From sequence record PQ826431.1: DNA of 64,000 nucleotides. The stretch is one strand, 5' to 3'. The position numbers and the translations under genes were made by a program. Of this stretch, positions 2,459-37,645 are shown one piece after another; position 1 is the stretch's first letter, and each line of letters begins with the position of its first letter. Below the pieces are notes generated by a model. The model did no database searches, was not told the DNA's origin, and saw only the letters and a program-made list of their open reading frames with translations. Source of the DNA: a phage.

Positions 2459-2629
2459 ATGATCCCGACTATGTTTTATGTATCGCGCAAAGGTCACAAT
2501 ATTTTTTGGTCTGAAGATTTAAATGAAGCTATGACGTTTGCCCGTGATCGTGTTGCTATCGGTGGCGTTAATATCACCGTGACCGATGAAAACGGCATTG
2601 AATACTATAACGGCGATGATGAAGAGTAA
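2459..2629 (+). CDS. hypothetical protein (56 aa)
   Basis: track ORF trimmed to ATG after RBS AGAAGAGAAAC. Confidence 0.5.
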   Translation: MIPTMFYVSRKGHNIFWSEDLNEAMTFARDRVAIGGVNITVTDENGIEYYNGDDEE

Positions 2630-2673
2630 TCAACAAGGCGGGATTAATCCCGCCTATATTAAAGGGCAATATA

Positions 2674-2811
2674 ATGAAAACTTTCAACGCAACAGCCTCG
2701 ACAATTGGTTATATTATTACAGTACAAGCCGTTGACCTGGTAGCGGCAGCAAACAAGATTAAAAAAATGATCCCAACAGGCAGCGAATTTTCCGTTTGGG
2801 AAGTAAAATAA
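2674..2811 (+). CDS. hypothetical protein (45 aa)
   Basis: ATG downstream of hairpin GGCGGGA-TTA-TCCCGCC; not in track. Confidence 0.35.
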   Translation: MKTFNATASTIGYIITVQAVDLVAAANKIKKMIPTGSEFSVWEVK

Positions 2812-2814
2812 AGC

Positions 2815-2876
2815 TTGACAATAATTTGTTATCTAGTAAAGTGTATTACGTAGGGCGGGGCAATGGTGCAACGCCC
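2815..2876 (+). promoter_or_regulatory. promoter (-35 TTGACA, TGTATTAC box) plus 5' stem-loop with ATGG loop
   Basis: sequence motifs. Confidence 0.45.
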
Positions 2877-2894
2877 ATTAATGAGGGTAGAATC

Positions 2895-2999
2895 ATGTTA
2901 GAGAAAATTTTCACGGTTGCAGTGGTTGGCCTGGCGTTATCGGTTGGAGTAGTTGCAACTATGGCTAATATGATCCTATCTTCCCACGGTATCGGTTAA
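2895..2999 (+). CDS. small membrane peptide (34 aa)
   Basis: track ORF trimmed to ATG after RBS GAGGGTAGAATC; hydrophobic. Confidence 0.35.
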   Translation: MLEKIFTVAVVGLALSVGVVATMANMILSSHGIG

Positions 3000-3009
3000 G
3001 GTGAAACAA

Positions 3010-3225
3010 ATGATCACGAACAAAACAGGCAAAACGGAATTTTTACGCGGCTTACAAGTTGGTAAGCCTGAGATCTGGCATTGCACGAAGTCCGCGCATA
3101 ATGAAATGAAAGATTTTACCGCTACTTTACAACGTGTTAAAATATCTATCACACAGAAAAAAGCCTTGTTAGTAGTAGAAAACGAGATCCCGCAAACTAT
3201 TATTATTGTCGAGCGTACAGCATGA
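3010..3225 (+). CDS. hypothetical protein (71 aa)
   Basis: ORF track; ATG after RBS AAGGTGA. Confidence 0.5.
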   Translation: MITNKTGKTEFLRGLQVGKPEIWHCTKSAHNEMKDFTATLQRVKISITQKKALLVVENEIPQTIIIVERTA

Positions 3226-3608
3226 AAACAGAAATCATTATTGAAATCATCAACGGCTATAAAGAAGCCTTTATTTTTGCTGAATCAGCAAGGGATCATG
3301 AAGGTAATTTTATTGAATACTTAGACTATTATGATTTTTCTCCTGGTGCGGATGAACGGATCGCCCAGGATGTAACAGCCTTTATTAATGCTAATCTTGC
3401 CGCTATCTCTGAGGCAATGAGCGACGGCGCAACAGCCATCCAGATCGGGAGTGATTTACATTTTACCCGTAACGGTCACGGCATAGGCTTTTGGAATCGC
3501 CCTGAAATATACACCACTAACACGGCAAACCGCTTAACCAGTGCCGCCGAGGTCATGCCGGACGTGTCGGCTTACATTGGGGAAGATAATTTGATTTATA
3601 TAGAATAA
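3222..3608 (+). CDS. hypothetical protein (128 aa)
   Basis: ORF track; start overlaps upstream stop (coupling). Confidence 0.55.
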   Translation: MKTEIIIEIINGYKEAFIFAESARDHEGNFIEYLDYYDFSPGADERIAQDVTAFINANLAAISEAMSDGATAIQIGSDLHFTRNGHGIGFWNRPEIYTTNTANRLTSAAEVMPDVSAYIGEDNLIYIE

Positions 3609-3614
3609 AAAGTA

Positions 3615-3673
3615 TTGACACCGATCCCCAATATGTTACTATTTACCACGTGGGCGGGAAATGGTTTCCCGCC
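3615..3673 (+). promoter_or_regulatory. promoter (-35 TTGACA) plus 5' stem-loop GGCGGGAAA-TGG-TTTCCCGCC
   Basis: sequence motifs. Confidence 0.45.
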
Positions 3674-3696
3674 AGGTAATCAAAAAGGTAAATACT

Positions 3697-4086
3697 ATGC
3701 GCAACCTGGTTTCTGTTTCTAACGTTGAAAAATTCCAATCTTTACAGGGTATCATTAACAACGTAGCGCCTTTTTTAGTCAATGGCTTGATTGCAAAGAT
3801 GAAGAATAAGCATCATGCGGCATGGTCTGCTTACTGCTTTGATAATGATGAAAAAGCGGCTGAAATGATGTTAAATATGCTGTTAGACAGTGTAGAATCA
3901 TCTTTACCGGAAAACATCGCAGAAGAGATCACCTATCGTTATAATATGGCGATCACTTACCAGGAAGTGGCACAGTTCAACATGATGGATGATGACGAAC
4001 AACAGGATCAAGAAATGTTTTGGGAGTATGCAGATCGTCAATCGGCTTTTGATGAAAAGTTAGCGATGTATTATAACGAATATTAA
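3697..4086 (+). CDS. hypothetical protein (129 aa), acidic C-terminus
   Basis: track ORF trimmed to ATG after RBS AAAAAGGTAAATACT. Confidence 0.6.
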   Translation: MRNLVSVSNVEKFQSLQGIINNVAPFLVNGLIAKMKNKHHAAWSAYCFDNDEKAAEMMLNMLLDSVESSLPENIAEEITYRYNMAITYQEVAQFNMMDDDEQQDQEMFWEYADRQSAFDEKLAMYYNEY

Positions 4087-4102
4087 TACACGGTAGAAGA
4101 AA

Positions 4103-4126
4103 GGGGCGCACTAAGCGCCCTTTTTT
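4103..4126 (+). terminator. intrinsic terminator GGGGCGCA-ctaa-GCGCCC + T6 (copy 2 of 3)
   Basis: hairpin plus T-run. Confidence 0.75.
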
Positions 4127-4473
4127 GTATTCTTTTTTCACGATGGAAACAACACGTAAAGAATAGGCGTAAAGGTGGCGTAAAACCATCTAAAACCGAC
4201 TGTAACCGCTTAAACAAGGTAGGGATGATTAATCACCTTACCAGGATGAAAAAGCCGTTATAAAGCTATCTAGAGCGTTTAAAGCACATAGGAAATAATT
4301 TGCTTTTTATCTTGCCTTTTATTCTGCTTTTGATTATTATTATGGAACGGGCGGCACCTGGGGGACAGGGGAAGATAATCACCGGAAGATCCCGCTATAT
4401 ATCGATAGCTAATACCTATCAAACAACAAAACATCAAAGAGATAAACTATCAAATCTTTACAATCCTACATAT

Positions 4474-5299: not shown

Positions 5300-6780
5300 G
5301 CCCGAACAATGTTGATAGCTTCCGCCTATGAAAAACCGACACAGAACAAAACTGAATAAATCACGGTATCGAGCTAATCAACCAGCAAACGAATAACCAT
5401 ACACCCCAGGGCAACAGGCTGTTAGAGAGCTATTTAGAGCGGTTAAAATCGATCAACAACCAACAACAAACCATCAAAAACACGCTTTTCTTTCCTTTCC
5501 AGTGCAATGATAACCATTATCATCTACCCATGATTATCTATGCAATATAAGCGCATAACTATAATGTTGATAATAGTTCGCAACAACTAACCAACCAACA
5601 ACCTAAAACAATAAGCAAACTAATCATAATCAAAGGAATAATAGAAAGATGATTGATAACGACAAACAATCAAACCATGATGAATACTAAGCAAGATAAC
5701 GATAACACGACAAAACAACCAACTAACGAACAATAACAAACGAAACCATTAAAATAATAACTATTGCCATAATAGTGACTGAATGAAATCATTCCCAGGA
5801 TCATCATTAGCACGCTATGCCGGACACATAGCGAGCTAATAATAAGCCAACTACACCCCAACAATCATAACCATCGGTGATGGTTATTTCTTGTTACTGC
5901 GTAGCTTGCAATAATTGCAAGCGTAATGACGCTTACACTTATTGCGCTGGCTTATTATTAGCATTATATGTAATTACCAAGATCATAACATTAGCGCAAT
6001 AACAATAATCATTGTAATAATTACAGTATGAGATCATTAGCATGGCAATAATTATTGGGGGCAATGGGAGGATGATTATCATCATTCCGATACATTGCAC
6101 ACTATGCACATAATAGAATAAAAGTCAATACTTTTGGGGGCGAAATGTTACCGCCACAGGCGGGAATGTTGAGCATCTTCTCTTAAACGTAAATAAAATC
6201 AGAAAATTCTTGATTTATTCTGGTTTTTATGTTAATAAACGTTTAAATAATAATCATTCTCATATAAATAATAGTCTGCTTGTCATGAGCGGGATTAGTT
6301 GACATTGTTCCGTCATATGATGAAGTTGCCAAACCATTGATAAATAAGTGTTTGTGTGATTTATAATCAAGTGGCCCACCTTGTCGCTACGTTGGCATAA
6401 GCCTTGCATAAGTCATTGAATACGAATGATAATTATTCTCATTCGCATGATATTTGGGAATTGTCGCTGCGTGGACCTGACGGCCCGAAAATTCGCGTTA
6501 AGCACTTCTTACGTATGCGCCATGATTTTTGCCATATCCTATTGATTCTATTAGATATTCTTGCCATGATTGCCATGAAACAGGGTGTCCCGAAATAATC
6601 TCTCCCCGTAGATATTTTGGGTTACTTTTTATACAAGAGTGGGGTGTCAAAAATAATCGGTATATATGGGATAATTGATAGGAATCCCCTATGATAATTC
6701 GATTGTAATTCCCTAAGATTGATCGTATGATGTTGGTGATTGATGATTGCCATGAAAGATGGCTAACGATGAGAGGAGAT
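5300..6780. other. long non-coding region: G-poor A/C-rich tract with CAA/AAC repeats (5300-5880) then AT-rich palindromes (5880-6400)
   Basis: no RBS-supported ORF; strong strand compositional skew; palindrome GCTTGCAATAATTGCAAGC near 5903. Confidence 0.6.
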
Positions 6781-6784
6781 TATC

Positions 6785-7129
6785 ATGCAAGAGAGTAAAA
6801 ATGTTCCGTTGAGTAGCTTACGTCTAATGAAGTTTTACAAAGCTTGGCTTGCTGGTGAGGTAGAAGGTCACACAACGAGTGGTTTGTGCATATGTTTGAT
6901 TAAGTATGTAGAGGGAACATACCCTGATGAACTGTTACCTCGTCTACAACAGGAGATGAAATCACAGTTTATTAGTGCAGGATTGGATTACAATTTCCCG
7001 TTTAATGAAGGTGGTTATGAGGAATACACCTTCGAACATAAAAAACATATTTGCCATAAAAACAAACATCGTATACAATGGGTGCTAGATAGAATTCAGG
7101 ATTACGAAGGAGAGAAAAATGACAAATAA
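6785..7129 (+). CDS. paralog family member 1 (GLCxCL / WVKDR motifs), 114 aa
   Basis: ORF track; RBS GAGAGGAGATTATC; shares FYKAW, TSGLC, GLDYNFPFN, QWV-DRI motifs with six other ORFs. Confidence 0.65.
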   Translation: MQESKNVPLSSLRLMKFYKAWLAGEVEGHTTSGLCICLIKYVEGTYPDELLPRLQQEMKSQFISAGLDYNFPFNEGGYEEYTFEHKKHICHKNKHRIQWVLDRIQDYEGEKNDK

Positions 7130-7487
7130 TATTCCGTTGAGTAGTGCAGCATTGCTTCGCTTCTATAAAGCATGGATTGCCAACTATCCTGCAATGAATC
7201 GCACAACGAGTGGCTTATGTGGTTGTCTGGTAGATTATGTAGATGATTTTGTTGGTGAGACAACTAGAGAAGAAGATAGAAGATGGCGGGATAGTTTGTT
7301 AGACCGTTTGAAATATGAAATGAGGAAACAATTTACATGTGCAGGGTTGGACTACAATCTTCCGTTCAATGCAGATTGCATGGATTACCTTTCAGAGTGT
7401 ATAAACTTGGCGTGTCATACCAACACGTTACGTCTTCAATGGGTGAAAGATCGCATTGAAGATGCAAATAATGCTTGCATTGAATAA
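7119..7487 (+). CDS. paralog family member 2, 122 aa
   Basis: ORF track; motifs FYKAW, TSGLCGCL, GLDYNLPFN, LQWVKDRI. Confidence 0.65.
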   Translation: MTNNIPLSSAALLRFYKAWIANYPAMNRTTSGLCGCLVDYVDDFVGETTREEDRRWRDSLLDRLKYEMRKQFTCAGLDYNLPFNADCMDYLSECINLACHTNTLRLQWVKDRIEDANNACIE

Positions 7488-34146: not shown

Positions 34147-34656
34147 TTAAACAAAATAAAATGGTTGAGAGAGGCCCAAACGATTCTTTGGGTCGTATAC
34201 ATACCAAGCGTATGCTGTCTTATCTGTTCCACCTGCAACAAACGAAGGCCGTTCTGAAAGGACTATAAGGTTTGTTGGTGGATTCTTTTGATGGAACTCT
34301 CGTCGTTTCTTTGACTCCAAGAAGCCCAACCGAAGAAGATAAATACAAACATCCGCCTCTTTTAAGCTCTTTTCCAAGAACTCCATTGCTAACTTAAATG
34401 GAGGATTTGTGATTATAATGTCGGGACGATTTTCCCATTCATGACTAAAATAATCTTTACCTTCTTCAAGTTCGCAATATTCTGAACCTTCAGGAAAATG
34501 GCGATAAATCGCTTCAGCTTCACCTCTGCAAGGTTCTGCAAAAACCCAACCTTCTTCCTTTAGATTTTTGAAATCTATAACACTAAACAAACTATTGATT
34601 GCTTTTTGCGGTGTCGGATAATAATCGCTCGTTGGGCGATCATAATCTAATGCCAT
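34147..34656 (-). CDS. putative N6-adenine (amino-)methyltransferase-like protein, 169 aa
   Basis: catalytic-type IIITNPPF (N/D-PP-F/Y) motif and N-terminal YYPTP motif. Confidence 0.5.
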   Translation of the reverse strand: MALDYDRPTSDYYPTPQKAINSLFSVIDFKNLKEEGWVFAEPCRGEAEAIYRHFPEGSEYCELEEGKDYFSHEWENRPDIIITNPPFKLAMEFLEKSLKEADVCIYLLRLGFLESKKRREFHQKNPPTNLIVLSERPSFVAGGTDKTAYAWYVYDPKNRLGLSQPFYFV

Positions 34657-35074
34657 CTAAAATCTCCTCTTTTGTAATATTATCCAACTCTTTAAAGGAT
34701 GAAATCTCGTTTAATAATCCTATTTGATCAGCTTCTAGAGGATAAGTGTTTTTATCTGTTTTTCTAGACAGAATATCTTCAACAAACTTATCAATAGCCA
34801 AAGAAGAATCATAAAATTTTAAAAGTTGGTAATCCATAGGAGATATTTTGTCATCTCTTAGAAATATTTCTAACATGTTTTCAGGAGTATCATGGTTTAG
34901 TTTATGTTCACCAAAAATATTAACTTCATAAACATCTTTGCCAAACCAACGTTTCTTCTTTTCAACAGTATAGGTTTTTGCCACCAGACCATCTAAACAG
35001 TTTCTTGCCCTCTTACATGTTTGACGGTAAGAGTGGATAGCGCCTTCAACAAACTTAGCAGGAACTTGTAACAT
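34640..35074 (-). CDS. hypothetical protein (144 aa)
   Basis: track ORF trimmed to ATG after hairpin and RBS TAGGAGATTAATA. Confidence 0.5.
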   Translation of the reverse strand: MLQVPAKFVEGAIHSYRQTCKRARNCLDGLVAKTYTVEKKKRWFGKDVYEVNIFGEHKLNHDTPENMLEIFLRDDKISPMDYQLLKFYDSSLAIDKFVEDILSRKTDKNTYPLEADQIGLLNEISSFKELDNITKEEILDGIRL

Positions 35075-35120
35075 TATTAATCTCCTATGTTTAAGAAATG
35101 CCCCCGAAGGGGGCAGTTTG

Positions 35121-35813
35121 TTAAATAGCGGTTCCTTCGAAATCCGCCACATTTACGAGATTAATATTTTCAGATTTAGAAGTCAAGTTGTTTTCTGCAA
35201 CAGATTTTTCTTCAGTATCCGCCTCGTTACCTGCCACGTTACGAGGTTCTTCTTCACCGTAGGGATTACCGAATTTCAAAAGATTGATCAATTCTTCTTT
35301 GGAGAAGTTTTCTAAATCATCATCTGTTAATTCAATAATCTCGTCTTGTTCTTCAATAAATGTTTCACCACCAGAAAAAGCATCTCGCTTTTTAGCTACT
35401 TCCATAGCCTGTTCTGGTGTTGCTCCTGCATCAAGAGCAGCTAAAGCAAAGTCTGACCCGCTTCCTACCGCATAATATTCTTCATCAATCGGATATGCAC
35501 GTGTTGGGTTGTTACCTTCGTGCAGGAAAATACGTCCATCTGGATGAACAACAAGTGCAATAAACTCTTCATCTTCTTTATCTGGATCAGAGTGAATCAT
35601 CAAACCAGGGACAGCATCACGTGCTGCTTCGCACTGTAGATTTTGTTCAAACCATTGAAAGAAAGAAAGCACGGAGGTCAGACGACCAGCACCGCCTACA
35701 AGGTAATCTCCAATTTTTCGGACCTTTTTGAAATTAATAGAATCTACACGTCCACCAAAAGTTACCTTACCGTCACTCAAAATCTTATTTTTGGTCGCAA
35801 TAATTGTCGTCAC
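35121..35813 (-). CDS. HslV-like (proteasome beta-type, N-terminal Thr) peptidase with acidic C-terminal extension, 230 aa
   Basis: MTTIIATKN N-terminus, GGRV, LVGGAGR, AVGSGSDFALAAL resemble HslV/ClpQ. Confidence 0.55.
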   Translation of the reverse strand: MTTIIATKNKILSDGKVTFGGRVDSINFKKVRKIGDYLVGGAGRLTSVLSFFQWFEQNLQCEAARDAVPGLMIHSDPDKEDEEFIALVVHPDGRIFLHEGNNPTRAYPIDEEYYAVGSGSDFALAALDAGATPEQAMEVAKKRDAFSGGETFIEEQDEIIELTDDDLENFSKEELINLLKFGNPYGEEEPRNVAGNEADTEEKSVAENNLTSKSENINLVNVADFEGTAI

Positions 35814-36316
35814 TATTCTTCCTCCTCTGTTAATGTTTTAAGAACCGCTTTCCCGCCATTCACATATTTGCAGATGTATTCTATCGCACGTAGTGTCTCT
35901 TTGTCAACAAAAATTTGATCAGACGTTGCGAGCGGGTTATTAAGAAGATCACTGCAATCACGAACAAGCAGTGCTTTCTTATTAAACAAATTACTTAAGA
36001 ACAGTAACTTCGCCTCTTCTTCTGTTATGTGCAGAAGGCTAGGATCGGAGCCAGCTATTCCTATTATACAATCAAACAAGCTTTCTTTACTATCAGAAAG
36101 TTCTTGAAAATGGTTTAAAAGCCAATCTTCTCCTAGACACCAACATTTAAACATTTCCAGTTTATCTCGGAGGGTCATATTCTCTAAAGTAAGAGCAATC
36201 TCTTTTTCAATATGGTTTACACAAATTTGACGAAATTCGTTAGGTTTTACGAGTCCCGTTTGATAGCACTCATCTATACCGCTTCTTCCGATAGCTATTG
36301 TTGCTACACCCATCAA
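35813..36316 (-). CDS. hypothetical protein (167 aa)
   Basis: ORF track. Confidence 0.55.
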   Translation of the reverse strand: MMGVATIAIGRSGIDECYQTGLVKPNEFRQICVNHIEKEIALTLENMTLRDKLEMFKCWCLGEDWLLNHFQELSDSKESLFDCIIGIAGSDPSLLHITEEEAKLLFLSNLFNKKALLVRDCSDLLNNPLATSDQIFVDKETLRAIEYICKYVNGGKAVLKTLTEEEE

Positions 36317-36348: not shown

Positions 36349-37107
36349 TTAAATAAACACTTCAGTAATCAGTTTAGACAAACGTCCACGTTTATTATCG
36401 TCCGTTGTCAGTTCAACATATCCAATAAAATCTACAATTGGCTCACGAACACCCTCTTCATTCTCTGGATATAAAAGTTCCAAAATTTGATGCAGACCAT
36501 TGCTACGTTTTTTAATTGCATATGTCTGGCGAACATCGCCTAATACAATAACATGCGTATTAATACCTGCACGTTCAATAAGAAGTTTAAGTGTTTCTGT
36601 TGACATAAGTTGTGCTTCGTCAATAATGACGATTGTATTATCCAGGGTAGCCCCCAACAAATAGTTAGGAATATTCAATTCGATCTTACCTGATCCAATA
36701 TCGTTTTCCAATTTGTTGGCTGTCATGAATTGCTGGAAAATACGTTTTGTAGATTCATAGTGTGCTGCTAGTTTATCTGTTTTATCCCCAGACAAGAAAC
36801 CAATCTGGTCATCTCCGACTTCAGTAGGGTTCTTGATAAAAAGTAGTTTACGGAAGTCTCCTGAACGAAGCATCTGCAAAGCTTTCCATAAAGCAACAGA
36901 GGTTTTACCAGTCCCTGCCGGAGCATTTACAACAGTCAGATCATTCCAAATCATGCTTTGAACAATCTTATTTTGGTCCCCTTCAGGCATAAATTCATCT
37001 AAACGGTAATCGTCATTACCTACCGCTTTTGCTGCATAACGGCTTTCAATCTTTGCTGAATTAGCCAGTTTCTGCCGTTGTGTTTTAGCTGCGGTTTTAT
37101 TTCCCAT
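36349..37107 (-). CDS. phoH: PhoH-like ATPase
   Basis: Walker A APAGTGKTSVAL, IIDEAQL and GDVRQ motifs; track ORF trimmed to ATG after RBS AAAAGGAGTG. Confidence 0.85.
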   Translation of the reverse strand: MGNKTAAKTQRQKLANSAKIESRYAAKAVGNDDYRLDEFMPEGDQNKIVQSMIWNDLTVVNAPAGTGKTSVALWKALQMLRSGDFRKLLFIKNPTEVGDDQIGFLSGDKTDKLAAHYESTKRIFQQFMTANKLENDIGSGKIELNIPNYLLGATLDNTIVIIDEAQLMSTETLKLLIERAGINTHVIVLGDVRQTYAIKKRSNGLHQILELLYPENEEGVREPIVDFIGYVELTTDDNKRGRLSKLITEVFI

Positions 37108-37126
37108 AGTAGCACTCCTTTTAGAA

Positions 37127-37140
37127 GGGGCCGAAGCCCC
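37127..37140 (-). promoter_or_regulatory. intergenic UUCG-tetraloop hairpin GGGGC-UUCG-GCCCC (copy; also at 25027 and 41413)
   Basis: identical 14-nt hairpin at three minus-strand junctions, each followed by RBS. Confidence 0.5.
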
Positions 37141-37144
37141 TTTA

Positions 37145-37645
37145 TTAGTTGTAAGCATCTAAAGTTCCAGAAGTCAGAACTTTAATTACTCGTTCAGCAC
37201 GGTTTGGCGTCTGGCTATACCATCGGCTTTTACGCATGTTTTTACCTGCTTGAGTATAATATGCATTGCTGATTAAAGTCAAGCTATTTTGAAACCCTTC
37301 AGCACCTTTTAACCCCAACTGGAAAACCATGTTGATTATTCCCAATTTACGAGTATCACTAACCTTATCATAGATTGGTGATAAGATAGTACTGTTTTTT
37401 ATGTCTCTCTTCACTTTTGCAACATCGTCAGCAAAGATTTGACGGGCTTCTTTTTCTGTGATAACTCCATTAGTCTTACGACCAAGAAGATTATCTAAGA
37501 TTTGAATAGCCTTTGCTTTATCTTTTATTTTAGTCAGAAGGTGTCCTATGCCGACTGTCCAATAACCAAGATGGTCTTGATAAACAGTAAGCTTCAGTCC
37601 TTCATCGACTCGTAGCATATCAAACTCATCTACTACTTTAGCCAT
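37145..37645 (-). CDS. T4-type lysozyme (endolysin, GH24), 166 aa
   Basis: near-colinear similarity to T4 lysozyme: EFDMLRVDEGLKL..YQD..GYWTVGIGHLL, catalytic E/D/T positions conserved. Confidence 0.9.
   Translation of the reverse strand: MAKVVDEFDMLRVDEGLKLTVYQDHLGYWTVGIGHLLTKIKDKAKAIQILDNLLGRKTNGVITEKEARQIFADDVAKVKRDIKNSTILSPIYDKVSDTRKLGIINMVFQLGLKGAEGFQNSLTLISNAYYTQAGKNMRKSRWYSQTPNRAERVIKVLTSGTLDAYN

Follow-up and report, generated by a model that had tools for sequence, protein, structure and literature searches.

Phage homologues of the proteasome were described as a class in the catalogue of new proteasome homologues published by Fuchs, Alva and Lupas in 2021 (PMC8665760). In this catalogue, PPH proteins have about 140 residues, occur in tailed phages and in their hosts and are devoid of helix H2, a lack that is a trait of the PPH and RPC families; RPC proteins are related to PPH, carry a C-terminal extension and were reported only from proteobacterial genomes, and AAH and CPH were also reported in phages (PMC8665760). 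The betaproteobacterial proteasome homologue (BPH) has an acidic pore loop and functions with no unfoldase known to assist it; nor did the study detect an AAA+ partner that co-occurs with one of the new homologues (PMC8665760). The present analysis concerns a stretch of 64,000 nucleotides of phage DNA (sequence record PQ826431.1; hereafter the window) and a gene located on its minus strand, at 35121..35813, whose product was presented in an initial annotation as an HslV-like peptidase with an N-terminal threonine and a long acidic tail. We propose, with a probability of about 0.6, that this product is a phage-specific N-terminal nucleophile (Ntn) hydrolase of the proteasome/HslV superfamily, more precisely a long form that probably forms rings and acts as an HslU-independent peptidase.

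Fold and active site of the phage peptidase

The gene is an open reading frame (ORF) of 230 codons followed by a stop codon, and its translation is identical to the string quoted in the initial annotation. The gene and the parts of its product are as follows.

35121..35813, minus strand: complete coding sequence of the proteasome-fold N-terminal-threonine peptidase (230 amino acids and stop), equivalent to gp185 of Escherichia phage anhysbys
35349..35813, minus strand: catalytic core, residues 1-155, delimited from alignments and the structure model
35268..35348, minus strand: conserved acidic linker and two short helices, residues 156-182 (QDEIIELTDDDLENFSKEELINLLKFG), from alignment and model
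35124..35267, minus strand: variable acidic disordered tail, residues 183-230, with 11 Asp/Glu and 3 Lys/Arg, from model and alignment

Sequence profiles and structure comparisons agree on the proteasome/HslV Ntn fold that had been proposed for this protein. The hidden Markov model search suggested at that time as a check gives 25.6 bits with the Pfam Proteasome family (PF00227), above its gathering cut-off of 22.4, and the PHROG 1040 profile (“peptidase HslV family”) matches residues 1-229 with E=1.6e-63. The best sequence match among solved structures is HslV from T. maritima (1m4y, E=4.9e-9). An AlphaFold2 monomer model based on 30 homologues has a mean predicted local distance difference test score (pLDDT) of 81, with values >90 across most of the core. 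It displays the alpha-beta-beta-alpha architecture of Ntn hydrolases, and its top Foldseek matches in the PDB are HslV, archaeal and eukaryotic 20S beta subunits and BPH (E around 1e-10, probability 1.0).

The GTG start codon (35813..35811) is the earliest start possible in the frame after the preceding in-frame stop, and a longer N-terminus or a propeptide is therefore impossible. The protein thus begins with MTTI, the threonine standing right behind the sole possible initiator, exactly as had been noticed. MTT[IVL] opens 213 of the 232 family members, and the N-terminus of E. coli HslV is likewise MTTI. An initiator methionine followed by a small penultimate residue is removed by methionine aminopeptidase; the host enzyme would strip it from the phage peptidase as well and expose Thr1 as the nucleophile, as in E. 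coli HslV.

In precursor numbering, Thr2 corresponds to the mature Thr1, Asp14 to Asp17, Lys30 to Lys33, the stretch G40-G41-A42-G43 to the oxyanion region, G117-S118-G119 to Gly128-Ser129-Gly130 and D144, S147 and G148 to Asp166, Ser169 and Gly170. The catalytic and oxyanion set Asp17/Lys33/Gly47 is complete, and D14 and K30 fall on Asp17 and Lys33 of HslV from E. coli K-12 in a pairwise alignment. The Ser129/Asp166/Ser169 support network is also found in a BLASTP alignment with the beta subunit of T. acidophilum, whose sequence was entered by hand but gives the canonical residue numbering: GSGS aligns with GSGS, and AKKRDAFSGG with AKQRDSASGG, bringing Ser129, Asp166, Ser169 and Gly170 into register. 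Among the 30 homologues, down to 26% identity, M1, T2, T3, I4, D14, K30, G117-S118-G119 and D144 are invariant, and conservation is 90% or higher at G40, G41, A42, G43 and G148; at S147 it reaches 90% among 12 long-form sequences.

The description of the protein as an HslV-like phage copy holds for its fold and its MTTI start, but the gene is neither an orthologue nor a recent copy of hslV, because its product shares only 27% identity with E. coli K-12 HslV (over 157 residues), scores far below the cut-offs of the NCBIfam HslV equivalogs (31.4 vs 157.75 bits for TIGR03692 and 32.2 vs 137 bits for NF003964) and has a loop in place of H2. In HslV, the apical helices H1 and H2 form the docking surface and the tail pocket for HslU. 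The model of the phage peptidase lacks this pair: a single long helix (residues 45-67) is followed by a coil (residues 68-83) where HslV has H2. This loop is conserved and contains the nearly invariant P69 as well as G70 and P77, and an acidic DPDKEDEE patch lies ahead of the next strand. A recent capture of a host hslV gene was also considered and was discarded on the basis of the same identity and scores.

A two-part C-terminal extension

The extension had been described as acidic, added to the core and about 60 residues long. It is indeed added and acidic, but comprises 75 residues (156-230; 20 Asp/Glu and 5 Lys/Arg, net charge -15) beyond the last core strand and is not uniform, consisting of about 27 residues of conserved linker and helices and of a disordered tail of 48 residues. 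The two helices (164-169 and 172-181) are modeled with a pLDDT of about 85. The motif LTxExxxxx(S/T)KEEL is found in all long-form homologues, including those sharing 33-42% identity; long-form sequences never differ at T163 and L175 and rarely at E173. The BLASTP alignment with the T. acidophilum beta subunit (hand-entered sequence) runs on weakly into this element (IIELTDDDLEN vs YVQLPTDQIES), and the segment matched is the S12/H5 location of 20S beta subunits. The conserved helix may therefore correspond to H5 of 20S beta subunits and may have a role in assembly or docking. H5 stabilizes the double ring (PMC8665760).

The tail behaves very differently. Disorder is predicted from pLDDT values <50 for residues 189-220, and the mean pairwise identity among 58 close homologues is 0.80 for the core and 0.57 for the linker and helix, but 0.23 for the tail. 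In the same set, tail length varies from 13 to 86 amino acids and the last dozen residues have no common motif. Extensions are nevertheless net negative in 134 of 137 cases across the family, with a median charge of -12 and 25% of Asp/Glu: composition is conserved, sequence is not. A conserved C-terminal docking peptide, of the HbYX type or resembling the HslU tail, was searched for and rejected, since the last 12 residues vary from one homologue to the next in nearly all cases and the tails range from 13 to 86 residues.

Distant long-form homologues carry additional C-terminal modules after the acidic stretch, either a CxxC...CxxC segment (zinc ribbon) with a Trp-rich domain ending in W(K/R)L, or a helical domain characterized by V(K)YAHNIGxEKL. 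A Pfam search with six extensions at E<=10 retrieved no family of the SAP, HeH or Rho_N type, and the distant modules have no Pfam match; the visual impression that the conserved helix or the “AHNIGxEKL” domain has a SAP/HeH/Rho_N-type motif was thus abandoned. C-terminal extensions in general have been suggested to be appendages for partners or substrates (PMC8665760). The pattern described above fits an outward-facing appendage of this kind and not a conserved terminal docking peptide. The acidic tail is more likely an appendage that recruits partners or substrates, or that solubilizes the particle, than a specific docking peptide.

Occurrence in phages

A profile search of 1.84 billion representative sequences found 62 proteins at E<=1e-30, all of 180-330 amino acids and with a match extending through the conserved helix, and 5309 at E<=1e-10. 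Among the best 150 of the profile matches, the weaker ones (E about 1e-24 to 1e-30) mostly have 140-150 amino acids, a size similar to that described for PPH; the long form belongs to this much larger family of compact proteins. By tblastn, the family was detected in 234 phage genome records, including phages of Escherichia, Klebsiella, Vibrio, Aeromonas, Caulobacter, Rhizobium and others, and it is also present in viral contigs. Foldseek found 46 proteasome-fold proteins in a viral structure library. These 46 fold matches and the 234 phage genomes with this family alone indicate that proteasome homologues are common in phages.

By contrast with this phage distribution, when one genome was scanned for each bacterial species, the sole match was a 425-bp contig of Lysobacteraceae bacterium JHOS43 (JAPMLR010000072.1), 100% identical to the phage gene, which probably reflects contamination of the assembly by phage DNA. 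Apart from this contig, these species-representative genomes yielded no bacterial or prophage copy of the long form.

Aeromonas phage 2L372D (NC_048769.1) has two adjacent proteasome-fold genes (2932-3483 and 3501-4385 of the extracted locus L008), one encoding a 183-residue paralogue that starts with MTCII and the other a 294-residue long form, whereas the related phage phiA009 has the long form only. The products of the pair could form a two-subunit particle.

The 4 kb around the peptidase gene are 99.8% identical to those of Escherichia phage anhysbys (NC_052656, Phapecoctavirus, Stephanstirmvirinae) and 57 phage records match them at 99% identity or more; the window thus belongs to a Phapecoctavirus, a phAPEC8-like E. 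coli phage. The PHROG 1040 match and the anhysbys counterpart agree with the initial view of a phage-encoded gene. This counterpart, gp185, is annotated “peptidase HslV family”, and other records use “ATP-dependent protease subunit HslV” or “putative proteasome component”. Since gene and label are public and phage proteasome homologues were described as a class in 2021, the existence of the gene was already known. Two records that are 99.5% identical to these E. coli phages over 4 kb are assigned to other hosts (“Campylobacter phage B15”, MG065650.1, and “Acinetobacter phage vB_AbaM_ABPW7”, OP562383.1); this points either to doubtful host names or to contaminated lysates.

Gene neighbourhood and a natural deletion

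The peptidase gene lies in a leftward early/middle block that includes genes for ThyX, NrdAB, glutaredoxin, lysozyme, PhoH, DNA methyltransferases, DprA and a phosphatase. Genes for the virion head and tail lie at a distance, on the opposite strand. The following features surround it.

36349..37158, minus strand: PhoH-like P-loop ATPase (Pfam PF02562, E=1.2e-36), first gene of a three-gene cassette
35813..36316, minus strand: ORF of 167 codons (orf167; PHROG 14834, function unknown), located between the PhoH and peptidase genes throughout this phage lineage
35878..35907, minus strand: sigma-70-like promoter match TTGACA-18-TAGAAT (11/12), a consensus match only
35821..35827, minus strand: strong Shine-Dalgarno sequence GAGGAGG, 7 nt 5′ of the peptidase GTG
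35099..35115, minus strand: terminator-like GC-rich hairpin TGCCCCCTTCGGGGGCA followed by TTTCTT, beginning 6 nt past the peptidase stop

The peptidase GTG overlaps the TAG stop of orf167 by one base (TAGTG), and this overlap suggests that translation of the peptidase is coupled to that of the upstream ORF. The hairpin (35115..35099) folds better than all 200 shuffled sequences (z = -3.4). The promoter-like site lies within the 3′ end of orf167, about 65 nt 5′ of the peptidase start; since 23 sigma-70-like sites are observed across the region vs 17.6 expected, a single match is weak by itself. A second GC-rich palindromic hairpin (GAAGGGGCCGAAGCCCCTTT; 37124..37143 of the window) is located where the lysozyme and PhoH genes meet and may mark a transcript boundary upstream of the cassette. 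Downstream, a mechanically called ORF of 170 codons (34640..35152, minus strand) overlaps both the 3′ end of the peptidase gene and the terminator-like hairpin. However, its PHROG match runs only from residue 27 on and its annotated homologue has 144 residues; its real start is therefore the ATG at 35075, which has AGGAG ahead of it.

PhoH is annotated with a later start in anhysbys, giving a product of 252 amino acids. The orf167 product is modeled by AlphaFold2 as a confident all-helical protein (pLDDT 92), without any Pfam match or fold match in the PDB (best E=0.15). Its family is restricted to this phage lineage, and no homologue was detectable in the Vibrio or Aeromonas cassettes, including among ORFs in the same position. 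One source names an orf167 homologue “ABC transporter”, a label unsupported here. The orf167 product is a candidate partner of the peptidase.

The order PhoH, orf167, peptidase was found in all 22 loci compared (20 viral and two metagenomic contigs, with peptidases 47-99% identical). The three genes are contiguous in 20 of them, with a constant gap of about 530 bp filled by an orf167 homologue (28-100% identical), and in the remaining two PhoH is somewhat further upstream. At 35-38% peptidase identity, in Vibrio phages S4-7 and 1.187.O and Aeromonas phage 2L372D, a PhoH gene is still present 0.3-2.8 kb upstream. PhoH is absent from the 3.5-6 kb around the short-form genes examined, which come from phiCbK, from 21 viral contigs and from a Rhizobium phage. 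In one metagenomic phage (locus L003; 4425-5168 vs 6001-7140), the peptidase is 59% identical to that of the window and the adjacent PhoH only 24%; this PhoH may be a replacement that occupies the original position. The synteny between PhoH and the peptidase could be either inherited or the sign of a functional link. Alteromonas phage V22 provides a further case of PhoH beside a chambered protease, known from its gene table alone: the PhoH-like CDS-146 adjoins a Clp protease (CDS-147), and a separate “proteasome-like” product is listed as CDS-113 (PMC7289586).

Escherichia phage VEcB (NC_052663.1, Justusliebigvirus, complete genome) carries, at the position of the cassette, a single ORF of 267 codons (2501-3304 of locus L006) in which an in-frame fusion joins the N-terminal half of PhoH and the C-terminal half of the peptidase. 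The deletion takes out the C-terminal half of PhoH, all of orf167 and the half of the peptidase that contains Thr1, Asp and Lys, and the fusion is still labeled “peptidase HslV family” in the record. Barring an assembly error, all three genes are therefore dispensable on the host used for isolation.

Proposed role and alternatives

This work adds the following to what was already public on this gene. The peptidase is a PPH-like long form with a complete 20S-type catalytic network and not a copy of HslV; its “acidic tail” is made of a conserved helical element and of a disordered tail constrained in composition; and it is part of a fixed cassette with PhoH and orf167 that is deleted in one natural isolate. 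The complete catalytic set, the two-part extension, the fixed PhoH context and the natural deletion mutant VEcB make the window a tractable E. coli example of phage proteasome homologues.

The peptidase would probably be expressed with the early/middle nucleotide-metabolism block, as the last gene of a unit formed with PhoH and orf167 and ended by the terminator-like hairpin. After removal of the initiator methionine, Thr1 would act with the conserved Asp17/Lys33 pair and with the Ser129/Asp166/Ser169 network. By analogy with every characterized close relative, the subunits would form a ring-shaped homo-oligomer with sequestered active sites, in which unfolded or disordered polypeptides of the infected cell could be cleaved. 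The conserved helical element, if it resembles H5, would have an assembly or docking role, and the rapidly evolving acidic tail would project from the particle. A protease that remodels host or phage proteins, as the initial annotation proposed, remains our best guess for its function. If the peptidase acts on host proteins or together with PhoH, the role of two widespread phage genes of unknown role would be explained.

Several points weigh against this reading. The deletion in VEcB indicates that the peptidase was not essential on the isolation host of this phage, unless the assembly is in error. The loss of H2 and a first beta-hairpin that is four residues shorter than in HslV could alter the quaternary structure. 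The independence from HslU is drawn from the structure model and from a pocket that is partly conserved (F54->L, F57->F, Q114->Y), and the H5 assignment is a lead that comes from one weak BLAST extension with a hand-entered subject sequence. Connectase, which has the same fold, is a ligase instead of a protease (PMC8665760). Lastly, a full-text literature search found no experimental study of any member of the phage proteasome-homologue families, the literature retrieved being the bioinformatic catalogue of 2021 and tables of genome announcements only.

A rival reading is a nucleotide-dependent degradation or remodeling machine in which the PhoH ATPase, taking the place of HslU, would work with the helical orf167 product and the peptidase. 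The arguments for it are the contiguity of the genes in 20 of 22 loci at a peptidase identity of at least 47%, with the constant gap of about 530 bp, the PhoH gene retained 0.3-2.8 kb upstream in Vibrio and Aeromonas phages and kept in position in L003 despite 24% identity (vs 59% for the peptidase), the overlap between the orf167 stop and the peptidase start, the loss of exactly these three genes by one in-frame deletion in VEcB, and the PhoH-like gene beside a Clp protease gene in Alteromonas phage V22 (PMC7289586). However, shared ancestry could explain this synteny, which extends from NrdAB, glutaredoxin and lysozyme to PhoH and onwards and would then be inherited rather than selected. Moreover, PhoH occurs very commonly in phages devoid of this peptidase and is classified by Pfam among helicase-like ATPases and not AAA+ unfoldases, the short-form genes have no PhoH within 3.5-6 kb, and orf167 has no detectable homologue in the Vibrio and Aeromonas cassettes. 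We consider this machine improbable, and a version unrelated to HslVU in its ATPase, with the acidic extension or the helical protein as the coupler, a little harder still to credit. If it did exist, it could clear specific host proteins early, such as defence or stress factors, and the enigmatic but ubiquitous PhoH of phages would gain a function.

It could also be supposed that the peptidase docks on HslU hexamers of the host, either to create a hybrid ATP-dependent protease with a new specificity or to titrate HslU from HslV, the second possibility being the decoy evoked in the initial annotation. Hosts of long-form phages (Escherichia, Klebsiella, Vibrio and Aeromonas) are all proteobacteria, and proteobacteria typically encode HslVU. 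No gene of the HslU, ClpX or ClpA type is annotated anywhere in the 149-kb reference genome of anhysbys, whose sole AAA-like gene, gp074, has weak matches to clamp-loader-type ATPases. The HslU tail pocket of E. coli HslV is made of Phe54, Phe57, Gln114 and the H2 residues Ala79/Lys80 (PMC6429459). The phage peptidase keeps helix H1, with L and F at the positions of Phe54 and Phe57, but Gln114 aligns with Tyr and Ala79/Lys80 align with His74/Ser75, which the model places in the non-helical Pro/Gly loop, so that the apical docking surface is affected. The 27% identity to the host HslV and the lack of any co-occurring AAA+ partner in the survey of Fuchs et al. also argue against docking, and the tail, the C-terminus of which is not conserved, cannot be a conserved activating peptide similar to that of HslU. 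The decoy is thus unsupported and the whole scheme appears quite doubtful; according to the model, the phage peptidase most likely works without the host HslU. Another Ntn chemistry is equally doubtful: the protein could be a sequence-specific ligase or transpeptidase similar to connectase, which ligates with the same catalytic set (PMC8665760), or an amidase or isopeptidase directed at one host target, such as a defence or signaling protein. The variable C-terminal appendages of the homologues do resemble target-recognition modules, and dispensability, as seen in VEcB, is frequent for accessory or counter-defence genes. However, S3 and S4 are not separated by a connectase-like insertion in the alignment or in the model, chambered peptidases make up all of the closest structures, and no defence-related context was seen around the gene.

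Two further proposals have very little chance of being correct. No prohead protease is annotated under that name in the anhysbys genome, which would leave room for a morphogenetic role of the peptidase. But this gene belongs to the early/middle block of replication and nucleotide metabolism, on the strand opposite to the head genes, and VEcB is viable without the Thr1 half of the peptidase. Furthermore, a better candidate encoding 159 residues lies right after the portal gene (NC_052656.1; 22030-22509 of locus L015); its label is “DNA methyltransferase”, but “head maturation protease” PHROGs are among its matches (phrog_3017, E=2.5e-12), and its position makes it the likelier prohead protease. 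Gene position, this post-portal gene and VEcB led us to reject a role of the peptidase in prohead maturation. The acidic tail being found family-wide, a catalytically dead scaffold kept solely for this tail could also be imagined; such a pseudoenzyme is just as improbable, because the catalytic residues are invariant across homologues down to 26% identity, and the core is the most conserved part of the protein (0.80 identity vs 0.23 for the tail).

Comparison with known proteasome homologues

The phage peptidase shares with HslV its fold, the MTTI N-terminus, Asp17, Lys33 and the GSG motif, and HslV provides its best matches among solved structures. It differs from HslV by a first beta-hairpin that is four residues shorter, by RDAFSGG (RDxxSGG) where E. 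coli HslV has GDICIYTN, by the absence of the H2 helix in the model and of an adjacent hslU gene, and by the added extension of 75 residues. Its full catalytic network, including Ser129, Asp166, Ser169 and Gly170, and its RDxxSGG motif are instead those of the 20S beta subunit (PsmB of T. acidophilum), and it may also have an H5-like helix beyond its last core strand. However, unlike the 20S beta subunit, it has no propeptide, no H2 and no alpha-subunit partner, it is much more compact, and the identity reaches 27% over 75 residues only.

BPH (PDB 5ovs) is among the top structural matches, and the DPDKEDEE patch of the phage peptidase is found at the position equivalent to its acidic pore loop, before strand S5. 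Nevertheless, the sequence match is marginal (E=1), and BPH has both apical helices and no acidic C-terminal extension.

The likeness to PPH includes the occurrence in tailed phages, the compact core of group I (HslV/BPH-like), the lack of a propeptide and, in the model, the absence of H2. In contrast to PPH proteins of about 140 residues without C-terminal extension, the phage peptidase has 230 residues, i.e., a core of 155 and an extension of 75, and its H2 region is not deleted but replaced by a loop of nearly the length found in HslV. Its extension also differs from what is described for PPH and RPC in that it opens with a conserved helical element, and RPC is known from proteobacterial genomes only, whereas the long form turned up in phages only. 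Overall, in a comparison with PPH and RPC made from their published descriptions only, the phage peptidase is a phage-only long form of a PPH-like family.

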